From a bacterium (GTDB lineage Bacteria > Patescibacteriota > Minisyncoccia > Moranbacterales > GWC2-37-73), in NCBI GenBank assembly GCA_037140955.1, contig JBAXDL010000002.1:105846-169845 (forward strand): a stretch of 64,000 nt of DNA. Direction: 5' to 3'. The notes under the pieces were generated by a model that was not told the DNA's origin, searched no databases, and worked only from the letters and a program-made list of their open reading frames with translations. Numbering within the stretch: position 1 is the stretch's first letter; each line of letters starts with the position of its first letter. Shown in pieces: positions 553-43,440 of this stretch. Both the position numbers and the translations under genes were made by a program.

Positions 553-611
553 ATAAAACATTAATCCATGAGCATTTTTTAAGACGTTAACCGTGAATAC
601 AAGCTCGTAAT

Positions 612-676
612 AATATTGTTTTTTGCGACTTCCGTTTGAACAAAGTGAACGAAAGGCAAGCAAAGAAATAATATTA
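612..676 (+). repeat. 65-nt palindromic intergenic repeat, copy 1 (AATATT-T7-GCGRCTTCCGTKTGAACRAAGTGAACGAAAGGCAAGC-A6/7-TAATATT)
   Basis: Near-identical to the copies at 9398-9462 and 12050-12113. The outer arms AATATTRTTTTTTTGC / GCAAAAAAATAATATT are reverse complements. The core carries a direct GTGAAC repeat. This copy lies between convergent topA and the giant surface gene. Confidence 0.8.
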
Positions 677-843
677 TCACGAAGCTTTGCAATCAAGGAG
701 ATAATTAATTTCTTTTCGCCTATTTTATTTTTAGGCACGTCATTGGTCGAAATCTATGACCAATGACTCTTGATTACTGTCGTAGCTAGCGGCCTAAAAA
801 CAAAATAGGCTCACGAAATTAATATACATTGAATTATTTCTAT

Positions 844-880
844 AAAAAAATCAAAGCAATTGCTTTGATTTTTTGTTTTA
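844..880. terminator. bidirectional intrinsic terminator between convergent genes
   Basis: Perfect palindrome AAATCAAAGCAA/TTGCTTTGATTT flanked by an A-run and a T-run (TTTTTG), immediately downstream of the 889..9090 gene end. Confidence 0.5.
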
Positions 881-888
881 TTTTTTCA

Positions 889-3800
889 CTAGAATTTTGC
901 CCAACCAAAGATGTCTGTGAAGTTTCCAATGATGATTTGAATAATATTTTCTTTGCGCCGCGGTGTGAGCAGTGCAAAATCATTTGAAATTCCTTCATTT
1001 CCAGAGACGTCAACTGATTTAACCCTGAAATTATACACCGTGCCAGCTTTGAAAATTGTTACCACTCCCACGTGATTAGTAGTCAAGTTATCAGAGATTT
1101 TCATTTCTTTTTCTTCGCCATTTCTACCTTCTTTGTAAAGAATACTACTTGTTGATTGCTCATCTGTTTTCCAGGAAATGATCGATTGAACCTTGTCTGC
1201 TTGTGTGAGCGCATTGTCTGTTTTGATGTTGTCAATTCTTGGTGGATTCTCATCTTTTCCAGTGGTCAAGTCTTGCGCCTTGATTGTTGCCTCTGTTCCC
1301 TGTTCATCTTTAGCAGAAATTGAGATTGAAAAAGTTGTACCCTGATTCAAATTGATCAATTCAATCTTGTGCTCAGTGGCAAGATTACGAGACCCTTGCG
1401 ATCCAGTTGTTGCACTATCACGCACATCAGTATAAGTTACATTAGCATCCGTTGGAACGTCTGTCCTAAATGAAACAATTGCACCATGCTCACTGATATC
1501 ATTAATTGAAATATTAGTAATTTTTGCCGGCGATTTTGGTTCAAAAGTTTGATCAGATGAAGAAAAATATTTGCCATCAACATCCTTCCCCTTAACTCTG
1601 TAATGATAAGTTATTCCTTGATTTAGTGATGATAGTTCAATTTGATGATCAGTTGTTTGCGATTTGTTTTCCTTGATTTCGCCATAGCTAGTAGTTAGTC
1701 CATATTCAACTATTGAACTTGTTTCGGTGCTAGTTTGCCAGGTTATGATTGCTTGACCAAGAGCAGTTGATTGAGCCTTGATTGATGAAAGTGATGATGG
1801 AGCATCGGTTTGAAAAGATGATTGCGATGATTGTGAAATATTTCCAACTGCATCAGTAGAAGAAGCCACAAAAATATATTTTGTAGCAGGAATAAGACCA
1901 CTGACCAGCACACTGTGTTTTGTGGAATAATTTGCAACATCCTTGTTGACAGTTCTATCGGAAGCACCGTTTTCATCAGTATTAATGATGCCATAGCCAA
2001 CATTTGAACTTGCCTTTTCATCACTGTCCCAACTTATTGTTGCACTTTCTCCAGTAATACTGCCAACTGAAATATTGGAAAGAACTGGCGCAGTCTTATC
2101 CCCAAGTGCACCTGCACCAGCTGCGGTATACAATTGTTCTTTGGTGGTAAAATCTTTTTCGCCAGAAAAAATCGTTGTATCAAGATTGTCCTTACAAGTA
2201 ACTTTGTAGAAATATTTCGTATTAAACAAGAGTCCATTAAGCTGAATTCCATGCACCACATTAAAAACATCTTCAGATTTTGGAACAGCATCATAAATTC
2301 CAGCCGAGCTTCCATATTCCACAAAACACTTTGCGGCTTGATCTGATGAGAAAGCAATCACTGCGGCAACATCAGTCAATATTGATGGATTTGGATCAGC
2401 AAAAACAATTGAAGAAAGTGGACTATGTGCAAATTCAGCATCCTTTAGTGTTTTAAATGTTTGTTCTGCGCTAGTGTCAACATTGCCATTAATGTCAGTC
2501 ACCTGGATGTCATAGATATAATCTTTGTCGGGAGTCAGACCTGATAGAAAAATTCCATGCGAACGATCAAAGGTCGTGATATTTTGCACAATATTTTTTG
2601 AAGTTTTTCCATAACTAATTTTTACTTTAGCTGACTCATCAGTAGTAAAAGTGATGACAGCCGCATCTTTGCTAACATAAGCAGTTGTTAGATTTGAAAT
2701 CACTGGAGCAGTTGAATCTTGAGTAGTTGTTAGTTCAAAAAAGTTTCCTCCATTTTTATCAATAGTTTCATTGTTGCTTGAATCTTTCGAGGCAACTTCG
2801 AAATAATATTTGGTGTTTTCCAAAAGTCCAAACAAAGTTATTTGATGATTTTTTCCAGAAGCATTGTCAGCCAAACTTTGAGGATTAATCAAAACTCCAC
2901 CGGAAATAGTTTCAGAATAATTAATTTTTGCATCAGCATTAATATCTGTCTTCCAAGAAATGGTGGCGTCATTGTTGTTGACCTGTGTGATGATCACATT
3001 TGAAATTTTTGGACCAGCAAGAGTGGTGAAGGAAAAGTCTCCAATTGCATTTGAACCAGGATTTAAGCCTTCAACTTGACCAAGGTTATTCATTGGATCT
3101 CTTGATTTTACCTTAATGTTGTAACTTGTTTCTGGTGTTAGATTTGAAAGTATCACGGAGTGAGTCATTACCATCGAACCAATTCCATATTCTGGCAAAA
3201 ATGAGGTGTCGGGAGAATATCCCACGATAGAATCAGAAAGTTCATCAGTTGTCCAAGTAATTTCCGCCGTGGTTGGGGTGATGTTCGAAATCGAAACATT
3301 GGTGATTGTTGGCGGCGTGGTGTCTGTGCCACCTTGTCCATTTGGAATGTCAGAAACCGTGTCTGAAAATGCTGATTTGTTGCCAGCCAAATCTTTAGTA
3401 AGCGCGCGATATGAATACAGGATTGAAGTATTAAGATTGTTATCCATATAGAAATTGGCAAGACGATCTGTTTGTTGTCCAACATTTGCAAAACTGCCAG
3501 TATCCTCTTTTCTCTCAATTTGATAGGAATCAAAACCTGTGCCAACTTCAGCTGGAGAAATCACGCTCCAAGCAATAAACTCTCTAAAATCAGCAGCAGC
3601 AGAATTTGAAACATCAAAATATACCATGTTTTTTGGTTTTTGAGGTGTTGTGGAACTCGTTGTTGCAAAATTCCCTTTAGCATCAATGACTTTCAAATAT
3701 ACCGTGGATGGATCAGAGGTCATGGTTGGCCAATTTTTGCTGGCAGCAAAAGATTCAGCAGTGGCATCATGAAAATCTGCAAAATTGGAAACCAGCATTT

Positions 3801-6800
3801 GATAGGTTGAATCATCAGCAGGTACAGCAATGGACAATCTCTTAGTGGATCCATCAACCGTCAAAGAAACGTTGGCTGGATTCTTGGTATCAAGAATAAA
3901 GATTGGAGAAATTCCATAGGCCAAGTTGTTGGCAGCCTCATTGTCATCAACCTTGATTCTAATTTTCATGTTGGCATTATATACGCCATTGTAATCTGTT
4001 TTTGCATTCCAAGTGGCAGTATAAGTTGAAAAACTTCCCTCTTGTACCGCCACAGATCCAAGACTGCCACTTGTTGCAACGGCATTTGTCCATGTCTCAC
4101 TTCCATTTGATGAGCAATTTGCTGTGCAATATTGCAAAGTTGAATTTACAAAACCATTTAGATTTCCCGTGGTAGTGTCTTGGTCTCTGACATCATATGA
4201 AATTGAAACTATGCCATCAGTATTTTGCACGCCAGTCACATTTTGAAGTTCAGGTGGAGCGTTGACAACATAGGTTGCCTGCACATCAGAAAGAGTTGGA
4301 GTGGCTGTTCCATCTGAATGCAGGATTGCTTTGTATTGAATAAACTTGTCATTTGACCCATCAGAAATTGCAGTTGGCATTATGGTTGCTCCAGTTGGAT
4401 CAGAAAATTCAGTGCCGCTTGTGCCATCTGGCCCCATCCAAGAAGTCCAAGTGTTTCCATCTGCTGAAGTCCTGGCTTGCATCGTCACTGCAGTGTTGGC
4501 ATCAACTATTTGGTTCCAAGCAAGTTTGGCAAAAATATTAGCATTGTCAGTTGTGTTGTATGAAGATGAAATCAATGAGGCAGCTGCTGGATATGAAGTG
4601 TAGCCAAGAGTGATGTCATTCAAGCTTGGGGTGTTGGTTGAGTCTGAAGTGAAAGATGTTTTGTATTTAACATAGCGATTAGCACCAAGTGAACTTGGAG
4701 CACCTTCTTCGTCGGCACCAATGTCCCAAGTGTCGTTGCGGTATTGCCCATCAATGTCAGCTGAAAAAGGAAAATTCACATCAGCGGAGAGATTTGTTCC
4801 GGCGTTTTTGGCGGCAGTGTCAGAAGGAGAAAGGTGGAAATCAAAATTAGCAGCATCGATGAATTGTACGGTTTTATTTCTCAATGCGATGTTTGGTGAA
4901 GTTGCATCTTGTGAAATATTATTAACCGATGCAACATTAAACGATCCAGAATAATCAGCAACATTACCATTTGCAATATTATTTTTAAGAACTGCCCCAT
5001 TACTAGCAAAGCCAGTAGTACTACCATAAACACTATTATTGAAAATATAATTAGAAGAACCAGAATTATTAAATATACCAAATGAACCAGTACCAATAAA
5101 ATTATATATTATATTATTATAAATTTTTACATTCATTTGCCCATATCCACCAGCACTTAAATTTATACCAGTACTGTTTGACTGATTAACCAATGTTCTG
5201 ATTATATTATCAGAAACGTTAACATTTTGAACAAGTGATGAAGCAGAGTCCACCAAAATACCTCCGCGATAAGCCTGATTAAATCCATATTCCAGCATTA
5301 AACCGTCAATTACTACATTACTTATATTGATCACCATTGGAAACACAGCAGCGAATGATATTCTGATTGAATATTTCAAATTATCCCACTTCCCCGCATG
5401 CCGTTGACTCTGATTAGCCTCACTAGAAACATTGTTTGGAGTATAAATTTTAATAAAATTATTAACCCCAGTAGTATAGCCAGAAACAGCAACTGCGGTG
5501 GTGTCCGCGCCAGTGTCATAATAGCAAGGAAGATTGAGTTGATAATTATTAGTCACCAAATCAGTTGTGTTCAAAAAGTTTGCACCCGATGCTCCAGTGA
5601 CAGCAGCACTCAATGACGAAAAAGCATGGGCAATAGAATTTACAGTTTGACTTGTCACATCAGCTGGCACAGCGCCAAGCTTGGTGACAACTTTCCATTG
5701 GGTTGTGGAAATTTTTCCAGCAATATAGACCACGCTAGAAGCGTTGTATGTGATTTTGTCCCCCACTCCCATATTGGTGGCAGTTTGCGCTACCGAAAAA
5801 GTTGCAACTCCACTTGTAATGCTGATTGTTGGAGAGCCAGTTTTATGGTCGAGTGTGTTTTGACCAACTGAATAATAAATCGGAATTCCACTTTGATTCT
5901 GACCAATGTCAACATAGTTCCAAGTTGCATTGTCATTATTGACAGCAATTTGAGTTTTGATGTTTGTGCCAGCAGTGGTGTTAGCATTCAGAGTTATTGA
6001 AGAAATGTCAGCCTTCACTCCAAGATCAACTGAGTTCGATTCAAAAATTCCACTTGTTTTGAAAATTGGTGAACTGGCTTGCCATTCATCAGCTCCAATG
6101 TCCCAACTGTTGGCGCCAGTTAGACGATGGTTTCCATCAATGTCAGTTTTGAAAGTGGCTGACAAATCTGCACCAGCATTTTTTGCAACAGATCCCGGCA
6201 TCAAATGCAGATCAATGAGCGATGAATCAGTAGAGACAAACTTAATATCAGCAAGTGTTTGATTGGTTTTTGAATTGGTGCCAGGCGCGGTGGCGTCGGA
6301 GGAGATATTGTTATTTTCATATGCATCACCCCTTGTTCCACCCAAAAATGTAAAGCAAGTGCCCGTCGTGCAATTAGCCGTTATGTTATTTTTTTCATAA
6401 ACAATCTCATTACCACCAGATAAACGAATAGAATAGTTAAAATTTGAATTCCCTAAAATATTATAAACGGTATTATTATAAATATTATCATACCGACCAG
6501 AGTTAATACCCCAGCCAATATTTGAATTGGTAAAATTATAAATAATATTATTATAAACTACTGGATTCTCAGTTGAATTATCAGCTGGCATACCAATTCC
6601 GTATACTCTAGTAGATACGCCCTGTCTAGGATTATATATTAGATTATTTGCAACAATTCCTCTAAAGCCTATATTAATCGCATATCGTGGTTGATTATCA
6701 TCTGTACCCCAATTCGTAATTTCGAATCCGTCAATTATGGTATATTGATTACTAACAGAAATAATATTTGAAGCCACCGCACCTGGTGAGATAATAACAC

Positions 6801-9090
6801 CTGTCCCAGCCACCCCCCAATGCCGGCTCCTTGGCTCCACAGTAAGCCACATGTAATGATTAGCATCAACAGTTGAGCCAGCAATATTAACCCCATCGGT
6901 AAACACTGAACATTTATATGCCTCACCCTTTTCAACTATCCCAGTCGTAGTAATTACAGATAAAACAGTAGCCTGTGCGCCTGATGTTTGCCCAACTACA
7001 ACCTCACCTTGTTGAAAATAACCGGTAGTAGGATTTTCAGTTAAATATTTTTCATTTGCAGTTGCTGTGTTGTGCTCTTTTGTATAAGTTCCCTGATTTC
7101 CTGATGTTTGCCCTATTATAACTTCATCGGCAGTAAAAATACCTATTTGCCCACTAATCTTATACACACCTCGATTTGTCAAATTTCCACTTCTCCACCC
7201 CACCCAATTCTGCAATGTCGCAAAATCCATACCCACACCAGATCCAATTGATGAAACATGTACATAAACAGCACCCACATCATCAGCTCCAATATCCCAA
7301 GTTCCAGCTCTTATATCACCATCAATATCTGTCGATATTGGCAAATTTGCATCAGCCGATAAATCCACTCCAGCATTCTTGGCGACAGTGTCATTAAATT
7401 CCAAATGGAAGTCTTTATTTGCCGCATCGACAAATGCGACTGCTTTATTCCTAAGCGCAACATTTGGCGAGGTTGCATCGTCAGAAATATTGCCAGCAGA
7501 GGCAGCCGAAAATGTTCCAACATATTCAATGCCAGTTGTTCCATTGACAATATTATTCTTTAAAACTGGAGTAGAATTTGCAACAAAAAATCCACCACCC
7601 ACATTATACAAGGTGTTGTTGTAGATATATGCATTATTACTCGCATAAATACCATAATTACTTACAGTTGTAGTTTTCCAGTCGTATATTATGTTATTAG
7701 AAATTTTTACATTAATTCCAATCGGCGCCCTAGCATCAATACCAGCATTGTATTGACTACCACCAGCACAATTACTTGTTATGAGATTTGAATCAATTAT
7801 GATATCACCATTACTACCGGTTATAGCTTTTGCATTAATACCGTTTAAATAATCACGGTTGTTTCCTATTCTTTTTATCTGCAAACCAATGATTTTCACA
7901 TAATTTGTCGAGATATCAATAGTTCCTATGCCACCAGTATTAGAGGTATATTGAATACTATACTTCCCATCATCCCACTTTCCCCGATGCCTTTCTCCAA
8001 GTGGCACATTAATTTCCACATAATGCGTAGCATCAGTTGTCCAGCCAGCAATTGCAAGTGGTGTAGTGTCTGGTCCAACGTCATAATATGGCAAAGCCCT
8101 TTCCACAGCATTGCGCGCCACCAAATCTCCTTGCCTGCCAGCTTCCCAAGCAGCAAGGTCAGAGTACCATCTTCCTACTGAACCAACACCAGAAGCTGGC
8201 GAGCCACCATTGCCCTCTGAATCAATAACTAAAAGTCTAGGCGTTGTGTTTGAAGGATTGAGTGACAATACTTTCCAAGGTTTTCCAGTTGAATCAACAA
8301 ATTTATCATTCTTAAAAATTCTAGAAAGATTTGGTGTGCCAGAAAGAACCAATAGCCATGGTCCAGCTTGATTGACAGCTGTCACAGTCAGTGAAACATT
8401 AGCCAAATGACCAACGGTATATTCATTAACCGAAAGATCTTTGACAATTGAAAGAGAAGCTGAATTTCCCGTACCAAGTGTTTCTGTGTTAGTTTTTGTG
8501 CCAGCATTGAAATCAGCTTCAGTTGTTTGGGTCACTGCTTGTGTGATTTGTTGCAATTGCAAATCATTGCCACCATTTGCCAAGGCAATTCCGGCATCCT
8601 TGCTTTGAAATTCACTCCAAAGCGTTTGATTGGAATTGTGCACAGCAACATTAGCACTTTGTGTTGCCCAAGAAGTTTGTGCGAAATGAAAAGTTGCACT
8701 GTGAGTGATTCCTCCTGGAAAAAAAACTTGAATGGCAATTATTGCCAGGAAAATTGAAAAAGCAGTGGAAGAAAAACTGTAGGTGAAAAGTTTTACTTTT
8801 TTTTGATAATTCTTAAGATGAGAATATGAGTTAAAATTAAGATTAGACTGTGAATTTAGATTTTTTTCTGCTTTTATTTTCGCAATTCGAAGATGATTCT
8901 CTGCAGCTGATTTTGAAAGCAAGTGCCAATGATCTTGCAAAAAAACTGCAATTTTTTGAACTGAAAATGTTTTCTTGAAATTAAATCTATCCCAAAATTT
9001 TCTTTCAACATTAAGATCTTTTAATCTTGTTTTCACAGCCTCTTTTGCTGGTTCAATTTTTGGGTTTTTTTTAATTCTTTCCATGACCAA
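889..9090 (-). CDS. giant (2733 aa) cell-surface protein with N-terminal TM anchor, right-handed parallel beta-helix (pectin-lyase-like) repeats and multiple fibronectin-III/Ig-like domains
   Basis: Single 8.2 kb ORF. Hydrophobic segment near the N-terminus. Recurrent NNIIYN / NNxxYN beta-helix rungs and repeated WDIGADE-type motifs. Several FN3-like blocks (e.g. ITNVSISNITPTTAEITWTTDE...YNIKVKSRD). SD GAGAGGA 5 nt upstream of the ATG. Confidence 0.85.
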   Translation of the reverse strand: MVMERIKKNPKIEPAKEAVKTRLKDLNVERKFWDRFNFKKTFSVQKIAVFLQDHWHLLSKSAAENHLRIAKIKAEKNLNSQSNLNFNSYSHLKNYQKKVKLFTYSFSSTAFSIFLAIIAIQVFFPGGITHSATFHFAQTSWATQSANVAVHNSNQTLWSEFQSKDAGIALANGGNDLQLQQITQAVTQTTEADFNAGTKTNTETLGTGNSASLSIVKDLSVNEYTVGHLANVSLTVTAVNQAGPWLLVLSGTPNLSRIFKNDKFVDSTGKPWKVLSLNPSNTTPRLLVIDSEGNGGSPASGVGSVGRWYSDLAAWEAGRQGDLVARNAVERALPYYDVGPDTTPLAIAGWTTDATHYVEINVPLGERHRGKWDDGKYSIQYTSNTGGIGTIDISTNYVKIIGLQIKRIGNNRDYLNGINAKAITGSNGDIIIDSNLITSNCAGGSQYNAGIDARAPIGINVKISNNIIYDWKTTTVSNYGIYASNNAYIYNNTLYNVGGGFFVANSTPVLKNNIVNGTTGIEYVGTFSAASAGNISDDATSPNVALRNKAVAFVDAANKDFHLEFNDTVAKNAGVDLSADANLPISTDIDGDIRAGTWDIGADDVGAVYVHVSSIGSGVGMDFATLQNWVGWRSGNLTNRGVYKISGQIGIFTADEVIIGQTSGNQGTYTKEHNTATANEKYLTENPTTGYFQQGEVVVGQTSGAQATVLSVITTTGIVEKGEAYKCSVFTDGVNIAGSTVDANHYMWLTVEPRSRHWGVAGTGVIISPGAVASNIISVSNQYTIIDGFEITNWGTDDNQPRYAINIGFRGIVANNLIYNPRQGVSTRVYGIGMPADNSTENPVVYNNIIYNFTNSNIGWGINSGRYDNIYNNTVYNILGNSNFNYSIRLSGGNEIVYEKNNITANCTTGTCFTFLGGTRGDAYENNNISSDATAPGTNSKTNQTLADIKFVSTDSSLIDLHLMPGSVAKNAGADLSATFKTDIDGNHRLTGANSWDIGADEWQASSPIFKTSGIFESNSVDLGVKADISSITLNANTTAGTNIKTQIAVNNDNATWNYVDIGQNQSGIPIYYSVGQNTLDHKTGSPTISITSGVATFSVAQTATNMGVGDKITYNASSVVYIAGKISTTQWKVVTKLGAVPADVTSQTVNSIAHAFSSLSAAVTGASGANFLNTTDLVTNNYQLNLPCYYDTGADTTAVAVSGYTTGVNNFIKIYTPNNVSSEANQSQRHAGKWDNLKYSIRISFAAVFPMVINISNVVIDGLMLEYGFNQAYRGGILVDSASSLVQNVNVSDNIIRTLVNQSNSTGINLSAGGYGQMNVKIYNNIIYNFIGTGSFGIFNNSGSSNYIFNNSVYGSTTGFASNGAVLKNNIANGNVADYSGSFNVASVNNISQDATSPNIALRNKTVQFIDAANFDFHLSPSDTAAKNAGTNLSADVNFPFSADIDGQYRNDTWDIGADEEGAPSSLGANRYVKYKTSFTSDSTNTPSLNDITLGYTSYPAAASLISSSYNTTDNANIFAKLAWNQIVDANTAVTMQARTSADGNTWTSWMGPDGTSGTEFSDPTGATIMPTAISDGSNDKFIQYKAILHSDGTATPTLSDVQATYVVNAPPELQNVTGVQNTDGIVSISYDVRDQDTTTGNLNGFVNSTLQYCTANCSSNGSETWTNAVATSGSLGSVAVQEGSFSTYTATWNAKTDYNGVYNANMKIRIKVDDNEAANNLAYGISPIFILDTKNPANVSLTVDGSTKRLSIAVPADDSTYQMLVSNFADFHDATAESFAASKNWPTMTSDPSTVYLKVIDAKGNFATTSSTTPQKPKNMVYFDVSNSAAADFREFIAWSVISPAEVGTGFDSYQIERKEDTGSFANVGQQTDRLANFYMDNNLNTSILYSYRALTKDLAGNKSAFSDTVSDIPNGQGGTDTTPPTITNVSISNITPTTAEITWTTDELSDSIVGYSPDTSFLPEYGIGSMVMTHSVILSNLTPETSYNIKVKSRDPMNNLGQVEGLNPGSNAIGDFSFTTLAGPKISNVIITQVNNNDATISWKTDINADAKINYSETISGGVLINPQSLADNASGKNHQITLFGLLENTKYYFEVASKDSSNNETIDKNGGNFFELTTTQDSTAPVISNLTTAYVSKDAAVITFTTDESAKVKISYGKTSKNIVQNITTFDRSHGIFLSGLTPDKDYIYDIQVTDINGNVDTSAEQTFKTLKDAEFAHSPLSSIVFADPNPSILTDVAAVIAFSSDQAAKCFVEYGSSAGIYDAVPKSEDVFNVVHGIQLNGLLFNTKYFYKVTCKDNLDTTIFSGEKDFTTKEQLYTAAGAGALGDKTAPVLSNISVGSITGESATISWDSDEKASSNVGYGIINTDENGASDRTVNKDVANYSTKHSVLVSGLIPATKYIFVASSTDAVGNISQSSQSSFQTDAPSSLSSIKAQSTALGQAIITWQTSTETSSIVEYGLTTSYGEIKENKSQTTDHQIELSSLNQGITYHYRVKGKDVDGKYFSSSDQTFEPKSPAKITNISINDISEHGAIVSFRTDVPTDANVTYTDVRDSATTGSQGSRNLATEHKIELINLNQGTTFSISISAKDEQGTEATIKAQDLTTGKDENPPRIDNIKTDNALTQADKVQSIISWKTDEQSTSSILYKEGRNGEEKEMKISDNLTTNHVGVVTIFKAGTVYNFRVKSVDVSGNEGISNDFALLTPRRKENIIQIIIGNFTDIFGWAKF

Positions 9091-9311
9091 ATCCTCTCAC
9101 CTGGAAAGTTTGTTTTTTGATTGTTATTTGTTTTTTTCCTCGAAAAAAGGTTCACTTTTTTGTTTTCAAAATATATTCATCCAGCAGTAGAAATTGCACA
9201 CTTCTATCGAATCTTTATGGGGTTATTATATCATATCTTGAGGGAGGAGTACAGGATGGAAAAGTGGACAACTTTTTCTTTTTTTTAAGCTATTTTTTTG
9301 ACTTCTCCTGC

Positions 9312-9340
9312 TTGCAAAATAGTGCTTATTTTCCTATACT
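9312..9340 (+). promoter_or_regulatory. sigma-70-like promoter (TTGCAA-N17-TATACT) for rel
   Basis: -35 TTGCAA at 9312-9317, 17-nt spacer, -10 TATACT at 9335-9340. The transcript would include the palindromic repeat at 9398-9462 in its leader. Confidence 0.4.
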
Positions 9341-9397
9341 AAAAACATACAAATAACATTGAAGATGGTAGCCGTTCTTTCACCACAAGCTCATACG

Positions 9398-9462
9398 AAT
9401 ATTATTTTTTTGCGGCTTCCGTGTGAACAAAGTGAACGAAAGGCAAGCAAAAAAATAATATT
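9398..9462 (+). repeat. 65-nt palindromic intergenic repeat, copy 2
   Basis: Same element as 612-676 and 12050-12113. Located in the predicted 5' leader of rel. Confidence 0.8.
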
Positions 9463-9508
9463 CATATGAAGCTCCAAAAAAAGACATAAACAAATAATTT
9501 TAACAAGC

Positions 9509-10987
9509 ATGAATGAATTAGGATTAAACGACATTCTCAAGGCGCTTCGAACCAAGCCTTCTGACCAAAGAATAAAAGTCATCACTTTGGCTTATGAATT
9601 TGCCATGGAGGCACACAAGGGGCAATTGCGTCGTTCTGGAGAAGACTATTTCCAACATCCTATTTCTGTTGCAATAATCTTGGCACAACTTGGCATGGGC
9701 GGAAAAACAATTACAGCTGGCCTTTTGCATGATGTGCCCGAGGACACCAGTGCAACACTTGCTGATGTTGAGAAAAAATTTGGCAGCGAAATTGCTGCCA
9801 TGGTTGATGGTGTGACCAAATTGGGAAAAATAAAACTGCGCGGCTCACATGAAGAATATTTTTTGGAAAATTTGCGCAAGATGATTCTTGCTATGGCTTC
9901 TGACATTCGAGTTGTCATCATCAAACTTGCTGATCGTTTGCACAACATGCGCACACTCGAATTCAATCCACCAGACAAACAGCAACGCATTGCCAGGGAA
10001 ACAATGAAGGTTTTTGCCTCCATTGCCAACAGACTTGGAATGGGAGAAATAAAATCACAATTGCAAGATCTGTCTTTTCAATATTTGGACCCAGAAAATT
10101 ACAAACTAACAGCACAGTTGGAAGAAACTCACTACAAAGAAAAAGAAAAATACGTCTTGCAAGCAATCAAGGAAATTGAGATTGAAATGAAAAAAGAAGG
10201 AGTTGCTATCATTGAAACAAGCGGGAGAGCCAAGAGTCTGTTCAGTCTTTTTCAAAAATTGCAAAAACATGACATGGACATCACCCAAATTTATGACTTG
10301 GCTGCAGTGCGCATCATTGTGCAAGAAGTGACTGATTGTTATGAAACACTAGGAATCGTGCATAAAAAATATCGCCCCATGATCGGGAGAATCAAGGATT
10401 ACATTTCACTTCCAAAACCAAATGGATATCAATCAATCCACACTACGGTTTTTGGGCCAGATGGAAAAATCATTGAAATTCAAATAAGAACACAAAAAAT
10501 GCATTCTGAAGCTGAATTTGGAATCGCTTCTCATTGGCTTTACAGTGAAAGCAAGAAGAAAAATTGGAAAGATTATATTTTCAAAAAGAAAAAAAGTTTG
10601 CCCGAAAAAGAAATTGAATGGGTCAAGCAACTTCGCGAATGGCAAAATGAAATCGGTAGAGACGATGAAGAATTCATGCAAAGTTTGCAAATTGATTTTT
10701 TCAAAAATCACATTTTTGCCTTCACGCCTATGGGCGACATCATTGACTTACCAGAAGAAGCAACTCCGATTGATTTTGCCTATGCAATTCACGGTGAAAT
10801 AGGAAATCATGCCACTGGCGCAAAAATAAACAACAAAATGGTGCCACTCGATCAACACATCAAAAACGGAGAAGTGGTTGAAATCCTAACCTCCAAAGAT
10901 CGCAAAACACCAAATGCTGATTGGTTGAAATTTGTGAAAACATCAGTTGCAAAATCACACATCAAAAGAGAATTAAGAAAAGAATAA
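9509..10987 (+). CDS. rel: short RelA/SpoT-homolog (p)ppGpp synthetase/hydrolase (HD + synthetase + TGS domains only)
   Basis: HD hydrolase motif (GLLHDVPEDT). Synthetase core (IHTTVFGPDGKIIEIQIRTQKMH, ASHWLY). C-terminal TGS-like segment. At 492 aa it lacks the usual C-terminal ACT/RRM regulatory half. Confidence 0.85.
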   Translation: MNELGLNDILKALRTKPSDQRIKVITLAYEFAMEAHKGQLRRSGEDYFQHPISVAIILAQLGMGGKTITAGLLHDVPEDTSATLADVEKKFGSEIAAMVDGVTKLGKIKLRGSHEEYFLENLRKMILAMASDIRVVIIKLADRLHNMRTLEFNPPDKQQRIARETMKVFASIANRLGMGEIKSQLQDLSFQYLDPENYKLTAQLEETHYKEKEKYVLQAIKEIEIEMKKEGVAIIETSGRAKSLFSLFQKLQKHDMDITQIYDLAAVRIIVQEVTDCYETLGIVHKKYRPMIGRIKDYISLPKPNGYQSIHTTVFGPDGKIIEIQIRTQKMHSEAEFGIASHWLYSESKKKNWKDYIFKKKKSLPEKEIEWVKQLREWQNEIGRDDEEFMQSLQIDFFKNHIFAFTPMGDIIDLPEEATPIDFAYAIHGEIGNHATGAKINNKMVPLDQHIKNGEVVEILTSKDRKTPNADWLKFVKTSVAKSHIKRELRKE

Positions 10988-11009
10988 AAAGTATTTTGAT
11001 GCTCATAAA

Positions 11010-11046
11010 ATAAAAAATCTTTCAAGTGAAAGATTTTTTATTTGTT
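11010..11046. terminator. bidirectional intrinsic terminator between rel and parB
   Basis: Hairpin AAAATCTTTCAAGTGAAAGATTTT followed by a T-run, with an A-run on the other side. Confidence 0.5.
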
Positions 11047-11056
11047 TTGATTTTAT

Positions 11057-11974
11057 CTATTGAACGATTTTTCCCAACAGAGAACTAAGATCTTCTTGTG
11101 AGTAATATTCAATCACAATCTTTCCCCCATCGCCAGCTTTGGAAATTTTCACCTTTGTTCCTAGCTTTTCAATCAGATTATTTTCCATTTCTTTTGTTTG
11201 CGGATCAATATTTTTGTGTCTTTCGTATGATTTTACTGAAACTTCTTTGGCTTTTTCTTCAACCTGTCTTACAGTCAAATTGCTTTTCAAAATCAATTCA
11301 TACATCGCTCTTTGTTTTTCTGGATTTGAAAGTGACAAAATTGCCTTGGCATGACCTTCGGTGATTTTTTGTTCAATCAAACCTTTTTGAACTTCAATTG
11401 GCAATCCCAAAAGACGCATTTTGTTTGCCACCAAGCTTCTTGATTTACCCATTTTTGTTGCAATTTCTTCTTGACTCATCTCCCAATCGGCTGCCAGTTT
11501 TTGATATGACATCGCCTCTTCAATTGCGTTCAAATCATGCCTTTGAATGTTTTCAATGATCGCCAGTTCCAATTTTTGCAAATCAGTTGCTTCGCGGATG
11601 ATCACCGGCACTTTTTTGAGGCCAATTAATTTTGAAGCCTGAAAACGTCTTTCTCCAGCAATAAGTTCATACAAATTTCCTTTTTTAGTAACAATAAGAG
11701 GCTGAATGATGCCGTGAATCTTGATTGATTGAGCCAAATTTTGCAATTTTTCCTCGTCAAATTGAACCCTTGGTTGAGATGGATTTGCCACAATTTGATT
11801 CACATCAACTTCAATGACATATTTGTCACCACGAATTGATTCGTCGCTAATGTTTCTGGATTGAGTAGCAATAGCTACTTGCTCTTCAATTACTTGTGCT
11901 TGATTATCCTCATCAGGTTGTTTGTTTGGAATAAGAGATGAAAGACCTCTTCCAAGTCCGAATTGTTGACTCAT
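11057..11974 (-). CDS. parB: chromosome partitioning protein ParB (Spo0J)
   Basis: MSQQFGLGRGLSSLIP N-terminus, ParB box (LIAGERRFQASK) and an HTH region. The ORF-track start at 12022 is a TTG extension with no support. An ATG at 11974 gives the canonical N-terminus. Confidence 0.9.
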   Translation of the reverse strand: MSQQFGLGRGLSSLIPNKQPDEDNQAQVIEEQVAIATQSRNISDESIRGDKYVIEVDVNQIVANPSQPRVQFDEEKLQNLAQSIKIHGIIQPLIVTKKGNLYELIAGERRFQASKLIGLKKVPVIIREATDLQKLELAIIENIQRHDLNAIEEAMSYQKLAADWEMSQEEIATKMGKSRSLVANKMRLLGLPIEVQKGLIEQKITEGHAKAILSLSNPEKQRAMYELILKSNLTVRQVEEKAKEVSVKSYERHKNIDPQTKEMENNLIEKLGTKVKISKAGDGGKIVIEYYSQEDLSSLLGKIVQ

Positions 11975-12049
11975 AATACAATCAATCTTAAATTTTAATT
12001 TATATATTGAATTTACAAACAATTAAATATTTGCAACATCTGCAGGTGG

Positions 12050-12113
12050 ATATTGTTTTTTTGCGGCTTCCGTGTGAACGAAGTGAACGAAAGGCAAGCA
12101 AAAAAATAATATT
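12050..12113 (+). repeat. 65-nt palindromic intergenic repeat, copy 3 (between parA and parB)
   Basis: Same element as 612-676 and 9398-9462. Sits inside the parA-parB intercistronic gap, antisense relative to the operon transcript. Confidence 0.8.
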
Positions 12114-12148
12114 CACGTGCAGATAATAAAACAAATACCAAAGCATCA

Positions 12149-12937
12149 TCACATCTGATTTCTAATTCTTTCAGCTTCATCGCGAGCAATGATTTCCTTG
12201 ACCAAATTTTTGTATGATCGGGCTCCCTTTGAGAGACTGTCAAAACTCAGAATTGATTTTCCATAACTGGGCGCTTCAGCCAAACGAACTGAGCGAGGAA
12301 TCACACTTTCAAAAACATGACCTGGAAAATGATTGCGCATTTCCTTGACAACTTGCCTAGAAAGACGGTTGCGACGATCATACATGGTCAAAACAGCCCC
12401 CATAATCTTCAATTTTGGCTGCAAATGCTTTTGGACCAATTCAATTGTTGAAAGAAGTTGGCTCAATCCCTCCAGGGCATAATATTCAGTTTGCACTGGA
12501 ATCAAAACCTCATCACTGGCCACAAGCCCATTAATCGTCAACAAACCGAGGCTAGGAGGACTATCGATAAGAATATAGTCATATTCAGTGCGTATTTGCC
12601 GCAGCACGTCATAGAGCTTAAATTCGCGATTATCAAAATGAACCATTTCGACGCCAGCACCTGCCAACTCTTGCGAAGATGGCATCAGGTCATGACCAGC
12701 AGCTTCAGCCCGAATGATGACATTATGAGGATGATCACCACCAACCAGCGTGTTATACAAACCCTTTTCAAGGTTACGAATATCAATTCCCAAACCAGAA
12801 GAGGCATTGCCTTGCGGGTCAAGATCGACAAGCAAAACAGACTTCCCCATGGAAGAAAGGTAGGTTGCAACATTGGTCGCAGTTGTTGTTTTTCCAACTC
12901 CCCCTTTTTGATTTATAAGTGAAATTATTTTAGCCAT
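12149..12937 (-). CDS. parA: chromosome partitioning ATPase ParA/Soj
   Basis: Deviant Walker A KGGVGKTT. ParA-family similarity throughout. Confidence 0.9.
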   Translation of the reverse strand: MAKIISLINQKGGVGKTTTATNVATYLSSMGKSVLLVDLDPQGNASSGLGIDIRNLEKGLYNTLVGGDHPHNVIIRAEAAGHDLMPSSQELAGAGVEMVHFDNREFKLYDVLRQIRTEYDYILIDSPPSLGLLTINGLVASDEVLIPVQTEYYALEGLSQLLSTIELVQKHLQPKLKIMGAVLTMYDRRNRLSRQVVKEMRNHFPGHVFESVIPRSVRLAEAPSYGKSILSFDSLSKGARSYKNLVKEIIARDEAERIRNQM

Positions 12938-13187: not shown

Positions 13188-13228
13188 AAAAGAAAAAGGG
13201 CGCAGTCAATTTTTTGACTGCGCCCTTA
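13188..13228. terminator. bidirectional terminator (serves the minus-strand gamma-CA gene)
   Basis: 13-bp stem AGGGCGCAGTCAA/TTGACTGCGCCCT with a TTTTT loop, flanked by an A-run and a T-run, immediately 3' of the 13242 gene end. Confidence 0.55.
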
Positions 13229-13847: not shown

Positions 13848-14037
13848 TTTTACTACCTCCCGGTTTTTGATGAACGTTGGTTTGACTTTCTTTGAAATTT
13901 TTAAGCTACCTTAGTTATTCATGGTTTCATGCACAACTATAAACTTTACTCCTAACATCTATTTTCGTCAATATATTTTCAAGCAACGAAATAAAGGCAT
14001 TATTTTGCCATTTTATAGCCAAAATAAGCCATAATTT

Positions 14038-14078
14038 TACAAAAATAGACCCATCAAAAGATAGGTCTATTTTTCAAA
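14038..14078 (-). terminator. intrinsic terminator after the NuoCD-like gene
   Basis: 9-bp stem AAATAGACC/GGTCTATTT with flanking A- and T-runs, 15 nt downstream of the 14093 stop. Confidence 0.45.
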
Positions 14079-14092
14079 AAGTGCATAACTTA

Positions 14093-15688
14093 CTATAAGT
14101 CAGTTCCCGAATATGAAAGATTTAAGCTTTTGTTGATCAGTGGAAAGTCAGGCACGATGTTTCCTGGTCCCATGATTCCAAACAAAGCCCAATTGCAAAA
14201 TGATGGATCACGCGGAAAGCATCTTTCAATCACACAATTTTTAATTTCCAAAGCACAAAGAACTTCACCTCTCCATGACTCAACTGCGCCAAGAGCAAAA
14301 CCATCTTTGATCTGGAAAGTTGATTTCGTTTCACCCTCTGGAATGTTTTTGACAATTTTTTCAATCAATTCCATTGTTGCATCAAGTTCATTGATGCGCA
14401 TGAGATATCTGGCATGCACATCACCTTTCTGCGCACTAGCAACAACAACTGGAAATTTTTCGTAGCAAGCATAGGCATGATCTCTTCTGGTGTCACGATC
14501 AAGGCCTGAGGCGCGAGCTGCTATTCCAAGTGCGCCCAATGCCTTTGCCGCATCAAGTGGAAGCACACCGGTTGTTTGCAAGCGATCAAGAAAACCATCT
14601 GACTCTAAAGCCAATGTCACTATTTTTTTCATTTCAATCCAAGCCTCATTTCCAATTGTAAAAAGTTTTTCTAACTTCTCAGGTGATAAATCAAATTCAA
14701 CTCCGCCGGGAATTATATATCCCCTCCAAAAACGATTGCCAAAAACTTCATCAGAAACACGCATTAATCTTTCCTTGATGCGAAAACCATTGGCAGCAAT
14801 GAAACTATATCCAGTTCCCATTCCTCCAATGTTGGCCAAGTCATGAATATGCATGGTCAACCTTTCAAGTTCGCAAACAAGCATGCGTAGCATTTGAGCC
14901 CTCTGCGAAACAACTGTTCCAGCAATTTTTTCAGCCGCTTGAACATATGCTAGAGCGTGAGCTGCTGCCATGTCGCCAGAAAGTCTTTCCACAAACGGAA
15001 GAGCATTTTCCACGATCTTCCCTTCAAGTAATTTTTCAACGCCCTTGTGGGTGAAAAATAATTTTCCTTCCAAGGTTAAGATTCTTTCGCCAGCAACATT
15101 GAAACGAAAATGCCCTGGTTCAATTATTCCAGCATGAATAGGGCCCACTGGAATCTCATAGATTCCCTCTCCAGAGACATGATGCATTGGATATTCCACA
15201 TTGGCTTTTTCCATTTTCTTGTTCCAGGCAAAATCTTTTCTGAGTGGAAACTGACCAACTGGCACATTTTCATGTGAAACCAAGCGACGCGGATCAGGAT
15301 GTCCCTCGGCAATGATGCCAAACATATCTTGCATATAGCGCTCATACCAATGTGCGGCCATTATTGTAGCTGTTAGTGCTGGATATTTTGGATTATTTTC
15401 TGGCAAAGCAGCAGAAAGATTCAGCCACTCGCCTGTTTTATCATTTCCAAAAATAACATGCACGCCAAAAGATTCATTTTCTTTTCGATCATCACTGCCG
15501 TACAAAAGCGACAAAAACAAACCATGAGCCTCAACAAGAACAGTTGAAATTCTTGCAAAATCACTGCTTTCAACAGTTGCCACGGTTGTGTCATTTTTAA
15601 TTTCAACAACTTTTATTTCCGGAAAAATTTTAATTATTTCTGATATTTTCATTTGATTATTTTGAGATATAAATAATATTTCTAGCAA
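14093..15688 (-). CDS. NuoC-NuoD fusion-like / group-4 [NiFe]-hydrogenase large-subunit-like protein lacking all Ni-Fe cysteine ligands (Ehr-type large subunit)
   Basis: N-terminal 30 kDa (NuoC/HycE N-term) region. The conserved GPIHAGIIEPGHFRF block. ERLSGDMAAAHALAY sits where hydrogenases have RxCGxCxxxHALA, so both Cys are replaced. The C-terminal DPSFCN does not match DPCxxC. The likely true start is the ATG at 15652 (MKISEII), 4 nt after the upstream stop. Confidence 0.75.
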   Translation of the reverse strand: MLEILFISQNNQMKISEIIKIFPEIKVVEIKNDTTVATVESSDFARISTVLVEAHGLFLSLLYGSDDRKENESFGVHVIFGNDKTGEWLNLSAALPENNPKYPALTATIMAAHWYERYMQDMFGIIAEGHPDPRRLVSHENVPVGQFPLRKDFAWNKKMEKANVEYPMHHVSGEGIYEIPVGPIHAGIIEPGHFRFNVAGERILTLEGKLFFTHKGVEKLLEGKIVENALPFVERLSGDMAAAHALAYVQAAEKIAGTVVSQRAQMLRMLVCELERLTMHIHDLANIGGMGTGYSFIAANGFRIKERLMRVSDEVFGNRFWRGYIIPGGVEFDLSPEKLEKLFTIGNEAWIEMKKIVTLALESDGFLDRLQTTGVLPLDAAKALGALGIAARASGLDRDTRRDHAYACYEKFPVVVASAQKGDVHARYLMRINELDATMELIEKIVKNIPEGETKSTFQIKDGFALGAVESWRGEVLCALEIKNCVIERCFPRDPSFCNWALFGIMGPGNIVPDFPLINKSLNLSYSGTDL

Positions 15689-17132: not shown

Positions 17133-17156
17133 AATATTTAAATATTTAAGTTGGTA

Positions 17157-18755: not shown

Positions 18756-18811
18756 AAGGCTTATAATTTATGCGCTTAATTTCTTACAGATAAAAATAAA
18801 AGTGAGTGGAG

Positions 18812-18906
18812 CTATTTCACTCTTTGGCCAATAGCCGGCGACAGCGGCTTCTTGAGCTTTTGGATATTGAGCATTTCATCCAAAAGCGTGCCAAAGAGTG
18901 AAATAG
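18812..18906. repeat. nested inverted repeat (17-bp outer arms CTATTTCACTCTTTGGC/GCCAAAGAGTGAAATAG, 10-bp inner stem GCTTTTGGAT/ATCCAAAAGC) in the intercistronic gap
   Basis: Perfect complementarity seen directly. GC-richer than the surroundings. Lies inside the presumptive operon transcript between the NuoL-like and NuoH-like genes. Confidence 0.6.
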
Positions 18907-18946
18907 TGAAACGAACAATTCATTATTGCTAAAGCAAAAAAACAGT

Positions 18947-20950: not shown

Positions 20951-20959
20951 AGGATTATA

Positions 20960-22018: not shown

Positions 22019-22184
22019 AATATTAATTTCAAATCCAAATATCAAAATCTCAATTTCAAATAAATGACTCAAATCCAAATATCAAAATTTAGATTTTAAA
22101 ATTTTGGATTTTATTTGAAATTTTGATTTTAGATTTTAGATTTAAAAACAAATTTAAACAATAAATACTTTTAGGAATGTTAAT

Positions 22185-23608: not shown

Positions 23609-23722
23609 TTCGAATTTCCAATTTCTAATTTTGAATCAATACTTAATTTCCAAATTTCTAATGTTTCAAACATTCACTCATTCGGACTTGATTCAAAATT
23701 CAAAATTCGAAATTCAAAATTG
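23609..23722. repeat. AT-rich atp-spacer repeat family, copy 1 (TCGAATTTCCAATTTCTAATTTTGAATCAAT...AATTTCTAATG...TTCAAAATTCGAAATTCAAAATT)
   Basis: Shares long near-identical stretches with 27838-27976 and 29971-30084. Confidence 0.6.
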
Positions 23723-25656: not shown

Positions 25657-25691
25657 TTTAAATTTTAAGTTTTAAATTTTAAATTAATTTT
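25657..25691. repeat. 36-nt AT-rich spacer repeat (TTTTAAATTTTAAGTTTTAAATTTTAAATTAATTTT), copy 1
   Basis: Exact repeat of 28485-28520. Both lie in atp intercistronic spacers. Confidence 0.7.

Positions 25692-40379: not shown

Positions 40380-43440
<3,061 letters not shown>

Follow-up and report, generated by a model that had tools for sequence, protein, structure and literature searches.

Dispersed palindromic repeats have long been known in other bacteria, and the element described here, found between genes in a 64-kb stretch of DNA (the window, meaning the whole stretch analysed) from an uncultured member of the Moranbacteria (CPR), looks like a repeat of that kind. The closest described systems are the Correia elements (nemis/CREE) of Neisseria and the ERIC/IRU sequences of enterobacteria, which like the present element are short, non-coding, AT-rich and nearly perfect palindromes in intergenic or intercistronic spacers, form long hairpins, are co-transcribed with their neighbours (for the present element this is implied by its position) and vary in presence between lineages. 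The Correia and ERIC hairpins are substrates of RNase III or RNase E, which changes mRNA stability. In contrast to both, which show no sequence similarity to it, measure 100-155 nt and occur in hundreds of copies, the present element measures 65-90 nt, was seen only three times in the 64-kb window, carries no TA target duplication, recognisable IHF site or supported outward promoter, and is flanked by locus-specific inverted repeats.

REP sequences and BIMEs, which are mobilised by RAYT (TnpA-REP) and act as mRNA stabilisers, are also extragenic imperfect palindromes in 3' UTRs and between cistrons, with an asymmetry (a bulge) that defines their orientation, and several of their families may coexist in one genome. 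However, REPs are 20-40 nt long with a conserved GTAG-like 5' tetranucleotide and accompany a RAYT gene, whereas the present unit of 65-90 nt begins with AATATT and has no RAYT gene within the 64-kb window. Classical MITEs, the non-autonomous derivatives of insertion sequences, resemble it in their small size and high AT content, in having terminal inverted repeats that are conserved between genomes around an interior that varies, and in being absent from the orthologous sites of relatives; they differ in that the present element lacks an unambiguous direct target-site duplication, has no parent IS with matching ends in the window, and extends its complementarity into the locus-specific flanks. 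For the nesting, IS1397 and ISKpn1 offer an analogy, since they are mobile sequences placed exactly at the apex of a pre-existing palindrome, but they are full IS3-family insertion sequences with transposase genes, whereas here a 65-nt palindrome is concerned and its mechanism is one that we infer. Integron attC sites, which are recognised as folded single strands, are likewise imperfect palindromes (57-141 nt) in which the ends are conserved, the centre varies and some bases are extrahelical; unlike them, the present element has no RYYYAAC/GTTRRRY core sites (its ends are AATATT), no cassette array and no integrase in the window.

Three copies of the repeat

The core repeat was found at three sites in one orientation, as the initial annotation had proposed:

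612..675, + strand: copy 1, 64 nt, TTGAAC replacing the first GTGAAC
9398..9462, + strand: copy 2, 65 nt, perfect 16-nt arms
12049..12113, + strand: copy 3, 65 nt, G as first base

The 42-nt degenerate core gave three matches without mismatches in the 64-kb window, against 0.00 expected from 100 shuffles, confirming a true dispersed palindromic repeat whose near-identical copies go far beyond chance. An independent ENA assembly contig (L082) equals the window over 20,987 nt, all three copies included. All three fall within a stretch of 11.5 kb that has parAB at its centre, and the remaining 52 kb are free of copies; neither the clustering (p about 0.09) nor the shared orientation (p 0.25) is significant.

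Several details of the first description had to be adjusted. The length of 65 nt holds for copy 2; copy 1 has one T fewer, and copy 3 reaches 65 nt only when position 12049, with G for the first A, is counted. The 16-nt arms, described as exact reverse complements, are so in copy 2 and near-perfect in the others, with a mismatch plus an indel or bulge in copy 1 and two G-for-A changes in the 5' arm of copy 3. The proposed inner stem GGCTTCCGT/ACGAAAGGC is complementary at only 7 of 9 positions, and fold programs use 6-7 interrupted pairs. The peptide LLAFRSLCS[N/H]GSRKK was indeed found in both artefactual ORFs, but its use as confirmation at the protein level is circular, because it translates the same DNA in the same reading frame and adds no independent evidence. 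ORFs crossing the copies had no Pfam match; they are artefacts, and no other ORFs exist there.

One divergent member was detected in the hisS-HIT spacer of another Moranbacteria/Parcubacteria genome (L019:1676-1740). It retains both arms (16 of 16 nt of one and about 24 of 26 nt of the other, GAAAGACAAGC included) together with the asymmetric GAAAGRCAAGC block, while the centre is unrelated and the flanks form an inverted repeat of their own (TTTCCGG/CCGGAAA). Since the centre is unrelated while the arms stay, the GTGAAC direct repeat is not the conserved part, and the emphasis placed on it was not borne out: it is imperfect in copy 1, which reads TTGAAC...GTGAAC, and absent from L019, the sole relative outside this genome. 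No occurrence of the motif was found in the window beyond the three copies. The copies differ at six positions, two of which fall in the central stretch, about as its length predicts, indicating no extra constraint on the motif. The unit of about 65 nt consists of two conserved AT-rich terminal arms (AATATTGTTTTTTTGCG and its complement), starting with AATATT, a replaceable centre of about 22 nt, and the GAAAGRCAAGC block, whose conserved asymmetry leaves an AA bulge.

Hairpin structure and outer arms

Around each copy, and exactly centred on it, stands a second inverted repeat whose sequence is specific to the locus. Pairing runs 7-11 nt beyond the 65-mer on either side, in a sequence that differs by locus, giving a hairpin of about 90 nt with the following outer arms:

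601..611, + strand: copy 1 left outer arm AAGCTCGTAAT, pairs with 676-687
676..687, + strand: copy 1 right outer arm ATCACGAAGCTT, pairs with 601-611
9387..9397, + strand: copy 2 left outer arm AAGCTCATACG, pairs with 9463-9473
9463..9473, + strand: copy 2 right outer arm CATATGAAGCT, pairs with 9387-9397
12038..12048, + strand: copy 3 left outer arm ATCTGCAGGTG, 10 of 11 bases complementary to 12114-12124
12114..12124, + strand: copy 3 right outer arm CACGTGCAGAT, complements 12038-12048

Two compensatory double changes distinguish the outer arms of copy 2 from those of copy 1. AAGCT stands on both sides of these two copies at a symmetric distance of 6 nt, and AGCT is itself palindromic; the flanks of copy 3 (ATCTG/CAGAT) and of the L019 member are inverted, not direct, and the target-duplication model fails for both.

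Relative to shuffled sequence, RNA folding was far more stable on both strands (z -5.2 to -8.4), and DNA folding gave z values of -3.2, -6.4 and -6.8. The better-folding strand varies, being the - strand for copy 2 and the + strand for copy 3, for which the fold antisense to parAB reaches -40.9 kcal/mol against -29.2 on the sense strand. Such an inconsistent preference fits a palindrome at the DNA level and not an RNA selected in one orientation.

Genomic context of the copies

The three contexts given previously (the convergent ends of topA and a giant gene, the rel 5' leader and the parA-parB gap) were confirmed. Copy 1 belongs to the topA 3' untranslated region and precedes the terminators 739-767 and 842-877. 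Copy 2 is part of the rel 5' leader, with the conserved rel promoter (9312-9340) before it and the rel ATG (9509) after it. Copy 3 occupies the 174-nt gap from the parA stop (12149) to the parB start (11974), antisense to both genes. With copy 2 downstream of a conserved promoter and copy 1 upstream of the topA terminator, co-transcription with the neighbours is implied. The surrounding features are:

9312..9340, + strand: rel promoter-like site TTGCAA-17-TATACT, orthologous to the conserved CTTGCC...TATACTAAAAG motif of relatives
705..822, no strand assigned: neighbouring palindrome of the same architecture and other sequence, weakly matched by the repeat's covariance model; outer arms TTAATTTC/GAAATTAA
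718..736: T-rich arm of this palindrome, GCCTATTTTATTTTTAGGC
792..810: A-rich arm of this palindrome, GCCTAAAAACAAAATAGGC
739..767: own hairpin of its 55-nt centre
842..877, no strand assigned: true terminator for both directions, built of A-run, stem and T-run, in the spacer of topA and the giant gene

The palindrome at 705..822 is only 30 nt from copy 1. A long hairpin also occurs in each sizeable spacer of the ATP synthase operon in the window. No transposase, integrase or RAYT (Y1 HUH transposase) is encoded within the 64 kb.

Copies 1 and 2 flank the inserted giant gene, which is absent from that spacer in all relatives, as in an attC-bounded cassette, but the orthologous rel promoter separates this gene from copy 2 and argues against a cassette; in addition, one relative (L089) has a homologous giant gene between rel and parB without the repeat, and the cassette was rejected. 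A replication origin or terminus signal was considered as well, the GC skew of the window seeming to flip near 6 kb, and was rejected because in 12 relatives the skew stays negative to the left and right of the locus, with neutral values only for the head-on topA and rel genes.

Distribution in related genomes

No exact match to the core was found in the GTDB species representatives, and nothing in the phage or plasmid collections searched; the exact-core scans gave one chance match in the JGI metagenomes, in a eukaryote-like coding region, and one in viral contigs. A full-text literature search found no description of such repeats in CPR/Patescibacteria.

Among 5.8 billion proteins, the closest Rel has 87% identity; all relatives compared have a Rel identity of 87% or less, and their orthologous sites are not alignable base by base. 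Fuzzy arm search and covariance model detected no copy in the syntenic topA-rel-parB-parA region of 33 related lineages, and three nearer ones lack the element too, which makes about 36 Moranbacteria lineages in total. The nearest relative (L088, Rel 87%) has an "empty" layout of topA stop, terminator, rel promoter and 40-nt leader, with neither a leader hairpin nor a topA 3' hairpin. As judged from this comparison of genomes, the element is shown to have reached its three sites after the split from relatives with 85-87% identical Rel.

Other palindromes occupy the spacers of these relatives. Those between parA and parB are wholly different from the present element (TACAAAT, TAAAGTT, AAATTTTAAAT and others), with ParB about 75% identical, and their families recur across species in several non-orthologous, unrelated spacers, for example in the ATP synthase operon and upstream of topA.

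Mobile palindromic repeat as the favoured reading

On balance, and with modest confidence, the element is read as a dispersed palindromic repeat of the MITE/REP/Correia type that codes for no protein, is specific to this lineage and is nested in locus-specific palindromes. Within this reading, the best explanation is that it represents one of several long-palindrome families in the intergenic and intercistronic spacers of Moranbacteria. Three roles had been offered in the initial annotation, and the MITE/REP-like one is the best supported, owing to the absence from orthologous sites of relatives, the conserved ends and different centre of L019, and the several families of spacer palindromes. 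Conserved ends with a variable interior are the usual MITE pattern, and the palindrome of the same architecture beside copy 1 also counts for a mobile repeat.

Several observations weigh against mobility. No direct target-site duplication can be demonstrated; no gene for a mobilising enzyme lies in the window; all three visible copies share one orientation within 11.5 kb, which leaves room for a local function; the compensatory changes in the outer arms could reflect selection for pairing; and the recurrence of unrelated palindromes at the same two spacers could mean that a hairpin is needed there.

The nested arrangement could arise in two ways: the element may insert into the apex of pre-existing palindromes, or a palindrome may grow outward, with strand switching between the arms correcting it. 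Since the arms are nearly symmetric, either strand, when transcribed, would yield an interrupted RNA hairpin with a stem of about 25-28 bp and a weakly paired tip, situated in the topA 3' UTR, the rel 5' leader and the parA-parB spacer. Long RNA hairpins of this kind probably form on transcription. Double-strand-specific RNases could plausibly act on the putative hairpin, and exonucleases could plausibly be blocked by it, so that mRNA processing or stability is probably altered; termination of transcription is not among its effects.

Alternative explanations

The most serious alternative, which we regard as unlikely, is a selected cis-acting RNA hairpin, whose stem would be kept to control the processing, stability and relative expression of flanking cistrons, here the rel leader, the topA 3' end and the parA:parB ratio. 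RNase III sites between the early genes of phage T7 and REP stabilisers in E. coli operons are the known comparators. In its favour, 15 of 19 relatives carry a hairpin with a 25-55-bp stem in the parA-parB spacer although the sequences belong to unrelated families, the rel leaders of L089 and L008 hold a different large palindrome, every sizeable spacer of the ATP synthase operon in the window has its long hairpin, and the outer arms of copies 1 and 2 differ by compensatory double changes. However, two relatives have no parA-parB hairpin (spacers of 32 and 46 nt), L088 shows that the hairpins of the leader and the topA 3' end are dispensable, and template switching can produce compensatory changes inside a DNA palindrome without selection. 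For 11 of 15 parA-parB spacers of relatives, the sense strand gives a better fold than the antisense strand, but this is not significant (sign test p about 0.12), and the window copies have no consistent strand preference, copy 3 folding far better antisense to parAB. Selection for any hairpin would also leave the near-identical copies at three loci unexplained.

A DNA-binding-site module, in which TGAAC-N4-TGAAC at the palindrome tip is bound by a chromosome-organising or regulatory protein, is improbable; the candidate would be a non-canonical centromere, substituting for parS, of the adjacent ParAB system. This would suit the position of the three copies around parAB, the (T)ATGAAC arrays of the same 9-nt period in the parA-parB spacer of L002 and L013, and the absence of canonical parS (2 mismatches or fewer) from the window and from 1.38 Mb of loci around rel, a set that includes about 33 Moranbacteria loci, about 20 of them with parAB. 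Within the window, the 16-bp parS palindrome TGTTNCACGTGAAACA is matched at best with 3 mismatches, as often as chance predicts and always outside the element. Against such a module, copy 1 has TTGAAC, the L019 member lacks the motif while its arms are conserved, the motif occurs nowhere else in the window, and the clustering is not significant. Moreover, the spacer palindromes of relatives differ completely at about 75% ParB identity, the same families stand in unrelated spacers, and parAB regions share no conserved palindromic 12- or 14-mer. A LexA-like GAAC/GTTC direct-repeat box was rejected as the identity of the GAAC repeat, as the spacing is N5 instead of N7 and neither the genes nor the conservation agree with such a box.

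A small RNA gene or known structured RNA, such as a riboswitch or ribozyme, is very improbable in spite of the stable and conserved secondary structure. No Rfam family reaches its threshold at the element; the matches in the window are 23S rRNA, 5S rRNA and tRNA-Leu only, and a relaxed scan matched the element to generic microRNA-precursor models only, on both strands, with 13-28 bits against thresholds of 56-249. The apical part differs between genomes, no consistent promoter precedes the hairpin, and no terminator follows it, which makes a discrete sRNA, the role offered earlier, unlikely. An outward promoter on the - strand of copy 2 (TTCACA-17-TAATAT) found no support: promoter-like sites are not in excess (50 versus 42.5 in shuffles), the site in copy 3 falls below the scan threshold, copy 1 has TTCAAA, and L019 has nothing comparable. 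TIGR/CRISPR-like arrays were likewise rejected, as the copies are single and 2.6-8.7 kb apart.

An intrinsic (bidirectional) terminator family deserves almost no credence, and the initial annotation was right that a plain terminator is no explanation: the hairpin is strong and copy 1 lies between convergent genes, but on both strands the U-run precedes the stem and the A-run follows it, opposite to the layout of the genome's real terminators (842-877 and 11005-11046, the latter a terminator-like site seen in the hairpin census only and not called by the terminator scan), the extended stem is not followed by a T-rich tract either, the scan skips the element yet calls the true terminators 842-877 and 13196-13227, and copy 2 belongs to a 5' leader and copy 3 to the interior of an operon. 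The element looks like neither a terminator, nor a known RNA gene, nor a demonstrated protein-binding site.

Implications

What is unusual about the repeat is confined to two points: its outer stems are specific to each locus, and unrelated palindromes occupy the same spacers again and again. Both point to hairpin-directed insertion or to self-correction of palindromes. A speculative extension, to which we give only limited credence, is that Moranbacteria spacers are shaped by palindromic elements whose insertion is aimed specifically at the apex of hairpins already present, through recognition of single-stranded DNA hairpins, with nesting and serial replacement of families as the outcome. The conserved AA bulge and the GAAAGRCAAGC block could then serve as a recognition handle, nested palindromes would arise without ordinary target duplications, families would be serially replaced at parA-parB, the rel leader, upstream of topA and in the atp operon, and the 65-mer would be the youngest layer in this lineage.

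The genomes of CPR/Patescibacteria are small, and the usual view is that they contain little mobile DNA and little regulation. If the mobile repeat reading is true, short palindromic repeats lie inside the leader of the stringent-response gene rel, the parAB operon and the topA 3' end, where they would give organisms with few regulators a cheap and rapidly evolving means of modifying mRNA processing, and the repeat would also be useful as a strain marker.

The three copies of the repeat

A 42-nt degenerate core of the repeat (TTGCGRCTTCCGTKTGAACRAAGTGAACGAAAGGCAAGCAAA) was matched at positions 623, 9410 and 12061, all on the + strand and with 0 mismatches, against no match in 100 dinucleotide shuffles of the window, confirming the three near-identical copies described in the initial annotation. 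An independent assembly, ERZ27300110 from ENA, has a contig (k141_511937, 147 kb) that agrees with the window base for base along 20,987 nt, all three copies included. The ends of the 65-mer are AATATTGTTTTTTTGCG. The length of 65 nt holds for copies 2 and 3, copy 1 being shorter by one T, and the 16-nt arms, which had been described as exact reverse complements, are so in copy 2 but not in copies 1 and 3. The GTGAAC direct repeat is present in copies 2 and 3, and in copy 1 the first GTGAAC is replaced by TTGAAC. The central 17 nt holds 2 of the 6 variable positions among the window copies, about the expectation from length alone, and TGAAC-N4-TGAAC has zero occurrences in the 64-kb window outside the three copies. 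The direct-repeat scan was dominated by two giant genes (53384-58387 and 58552-63981, 1,667 and about 1,809 aa) which consist of FG-GAP-type repeats, dozens of them, recurring about every 180 nt. The two artefactual ORFs across the repeat, which had been read as confirmation at the protein level, share a peptide only as the same DNA in the same reading frame, and neither had a Pfam match.

Gene setting

The source was placed in Candidatus Moranbacteria/Moraniibacteriota (CPR/Patescibacteria) by the relatives of its Rel protein. The genes and copies are located as follows.

Genes around the three copies of the repeat
to 552, + strand, 3' end of topA
612-675, copy 1
889-9084, - strand, fn3-containing gene of 2,731 aa
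9398-9462, copy 2
9509-10987, + strand, rel
11057-11974, - strand, parB
12049-12113, copy 3
12149-12937, - strand, parA

Copy 1 is located downstream of the topA stop and upstream of a hairpin (739-767) and a bidirectional terminator (842-877), and thus within the topA 3' UTR on the + strand. Copy 2 has a promoter-like site (9312-9340, TTGCAA-17-TATACT) upstream of it and the rel ATG downstream. The relatives have a clear orthologue of this site ahead of rel, the CTTGCC...TATACTAAAAG motif, and the rel leader of the window is ~120 nt longer than the relatives' leaders (roughly 40 nt). Copy 3 is inside the 174-nt parA-parB gap, antisense to both genes. The gene map therefore agrees with the three different contexts noted at first (convergent gene ends, rel leader and parA-parB gap).

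The topA-rel spacer is a variable hot spot, ranging from 62 nt to 3.4 kb in relatives, and the giant fn3-containing gene (889-9084) is inserted there. A homologue with 62% identity over the C-terminal half was found in the related loci L089/L090 between rel and parB. Copies 1 and 2 were rejected as the two ends of a cassette, since such a cassette would contain the rel promoter and since L089 has its homologous giant gene at another place, without such repeats. An origin or terminus signal was dropped because relatives show no change of skew across the locus, as was an outward promoter from the repeat, which was no better than chance and not conserved.

Hairpin anatomy

Every copy forms a long hairpin on both strands, whether RNA or DNA parameters are used, and its stability far exceeds that of shuffled sequence, with z-scores of -5.2 to -8.4 for RNA folding and of -3.2, -6.4 and -6.8 for DNA folding. 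The strand preference was inconsistent, the - strand folding better for copy 2 and the + strand for copy 3. In all three copies the complementarity reaches beyond the 65-mer into the flanks.

Outer arms of the three copies
Copy 1: left AAGCTCGTAAT, right ATCACGAAGCTT
Copy 2: left AAGCTCATACG, right CATATGAAGCT
Copy 3: left ATCTGCAGGTG, right CACGTGCAGAT, 10/11 complementary

The outer AAGCT is common to copies 1 and 2, and among the six core-adjacent bases of these copies three positions differ, two of which are compensatory double changes. Copies 1 and 2 could also be described by a 5-bp target duplication, AAGCT. However, AGCT is itself palindromic, and neither copy 3 nor the L019 relative fits such a duplication, so inverted flanks are the general description.

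On both strands the repeat has a T-run in the 5' arm and an A-run in the 3' arm, with no T-tract after the extended stem on either strand. This layout is the reverse of an intrinsic terminator and opposite to the A-run/stem/T-run order of the terminators of the window (842-877, 11005-11046, 13196-13227 and 14035-14080), bearing out the initial view that a plain terminator is not an explanation; on this anatomy both the terminator reading and the structured sRNA offered as a role were rejected. At gathering thresholds, Rfam detected only 23S rRNA, 5S rRNA and tRNA-Leu in the window, and a relaxed scan of copy 2 matched nothing but microRNA-precursor models, on either strand and with scores well under threshold, as expected of any long hairpin. 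The 23S and 5S rRNA genes are at 40165-43445, where the ENA assembly breaks, with no 16S gene within 64 kb; the 23S gene (3,067 nt) exceeds the 2,925-nt model by about 140 nt.

Distribution among genomes

No match to the core (21 specified bases) was found in 185,579 GTDB species representatives. One match in JGI metagenomes (a eukaryote-like coding region, without arms) and one match of the arm pattern in viral contigs were judged to be chance, and BLASTN of the repeat against phage and plasmid collections gave nothing. Rel neighbourhoods were fetched from 80 genomes, in which the synteny hisS...dprA-topA-rel-parB-parA was kept in 33 Moranbacteria-like loci. A fuzzy two-arm search of these loci, and a covariance model derived from the known copies, gave the repeat family only in the window and once in L019. 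The closest Rel proteins among 5.8 billion sequences are only 85-87% identical; the element is absent from their contigs (L087-L094), and L088, the closest and from the same sample, has the plain layout of topA stop, terminator, rel promoter and 40-nt leader. These comparisons, in which the closest relatives have Rel 85-87% identical, indicate that the three copies were gained in this lineage. No transposase, integrase or RAYT genes are encoded within the 64-kb window.

L019 is Parcubacteria group bacterium GW2011_GWC1_45_14 (Rel 72% identical), where hisS and a HIT-family gene flank the element (1676-1740). Its AATATTGTTTTTTGCG is identical to the copy 1 arm and its GAAAGACAAGCAAAAAAATATATATT matches the other arm plus its asymmetric block, but its centre (CACTGCCGGCCGATCCAGGAGA) is completely different from the window copies; it also has its own flanking inverted repeat, TTTCCGG/CCGGAAA. 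On this comparison, the family conserves the asymmetric GAAAGRCAAGC/AA-bulge together with its ends. Conservation does not extend to the direct repeat, with TTGAAC in copy 1 and no GTGAAC in the L019 centre, so the emphasis first placed on GTGAAC was not upheld.

Other palindromes in these genomes

A second palindrome (705-822), unique in 1.4 Mb of related loci, is located 30 nt from copy 1 and has the same design with unrelated sequence: outer stem (TTAATTTC/GAAATTAA), T-rich arm (718-736), GC clamp, unrelated centre, GC clamp and A-rich arm (792-810), the inner hairpin being at 739-767. In 15 of the 19 Moranbacteria relatives, the parA-parB spacer contains an imperfect palindrome of 70-100 nt, often with 3-4 heptamer repeats per arm at a 9-11-nt period, belonging to several unrelated families (TACAAAT; TAAAGTT/TATGAAC; AAATTTTAAAT; TACGAA; others).

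Examples of parA-parB palindromes in related loci
L002:12490-12584
L004:2660-2796
L007:15501-15682
L012:9802-9990
L013:9272-9363
L016:12478-12612
L020:12875-13021
L029:12431-12571

Members of these families turn up again in other spacers and other species: one family is also found upstream of topA in L002, L013 and L021, and another, present in spacers of the window's ATP synthase operon, also fills the parA-parB spacer of L005 and L021. Every sizeable atp operon spacer of the window has a long hairpin, mostly AT-rich, imperfect and made of short tandem units (TTTTAAATTTTAAG and similar).

Palindromes of the atp type in the window
22044-22132, 23620-23707, 25668-25742, 27325-27405 and 28499-28594, atp operon spacers
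22115, 27831, 28937, 29968 and 58473, further positions

Beside this operon, a cluster of Complex-I/Mrp-like membrane subunit genes (14093-21499; Complex1_49kDa/30kDa fusion, two Proton_antipo_M, NADHdh and Oxidored_q6) resembles a group-4 hydrogenase or energy-converting module, unusual in a CPR genome.

In L089 (9700-10000, bounded by CCAAGCAGTGAAAATTCGAA/TTCGAATTTCTACTGCTTGG) and in L008 (5000-5255, similar bounds), the rel leader contains a palindromic insertion of another kind, roughly 230-270 nt long. Long palindromes of several dispersed families are thus a general feature of spacers in these genomes, and the parA-parB gap and rel leader are recurrent palindrome sites.

Interpretation of the repeat

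A small non-autonomous dispersed palindromic repeat of the MITE/REP/Correia-like kind, the MITE/REP-like role having been among those offered initially, is the best fit and on balance the probable reading, because the copies are near-identical and recently gained, the ends are conserved across genomes around a replaceable centre, other dispersed palindrome families coexist, and there is neither an RNA family match nor a folding strand preference.

It is unlikely that the repeat is a selected RNA hairpin. Palindromes do recur at the same positions, and the sense strand folds better in 11 of the 15 parA-parB spacers of relatives (not significant); however, the closest relatives can do without these hairpins, and copy 3 folds far better on the strand antisense to parAB.

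A candidate protein-binding module, e.g., a non-canonical centromere, is less likely still. The copies cluster around parAB, TGAAC arrays with a 9-nt period are present in L002 and L013, and no canonical parS (TGTTNCACGTGAAACA, <=2 mismatches) was found near parAB in positions 1-25000 of the window and in about 33 related loci. However, neither the clustering (p about 0.09) nor the shared orientation (p 0.25) is significant, the motif is not conserved within the repeat family, the spacer palindromes of relatives are mutually unrelated although their ParB proteins are conserved, and the same palindrome families are found in unrelated operons. No conserved palindromic 12- or 14-mer was common to these parAB regions.

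For the dispersed-repeat reading, two traits of the window element are atypical of MITE/REP/Correia-like repeats: its outer stems differ from locus to locus, and it lacks a clear direct duplication. One possible cause is insertion of the element at the apex of palindromes already in place; this would at the same time account for the way different families come to occupy the same spacers repeatedly. The other possible cause is outward growth of the palindrome itself, with correction by strand switching between its arms, and in that case the compensatory changes would require no selection.

The positions relative to the rel promoter and topA terminator imply that copies 2 and 1 are transcribed, in which case the element would form an interrupted hairpin, its weakly paired tip topping a stem of about 25-28 bp. 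RNase processing and mRNA stability are affected by Correia, ERIC and REP elements, and by analogy probably by this hairpin as well. The palindromic repeat is thus real and specific to this lineage; its kind is well known, its nested-palindrome setting is unusual, and the phylum that carries it (CPR/Patescibacteria) is under-studied.
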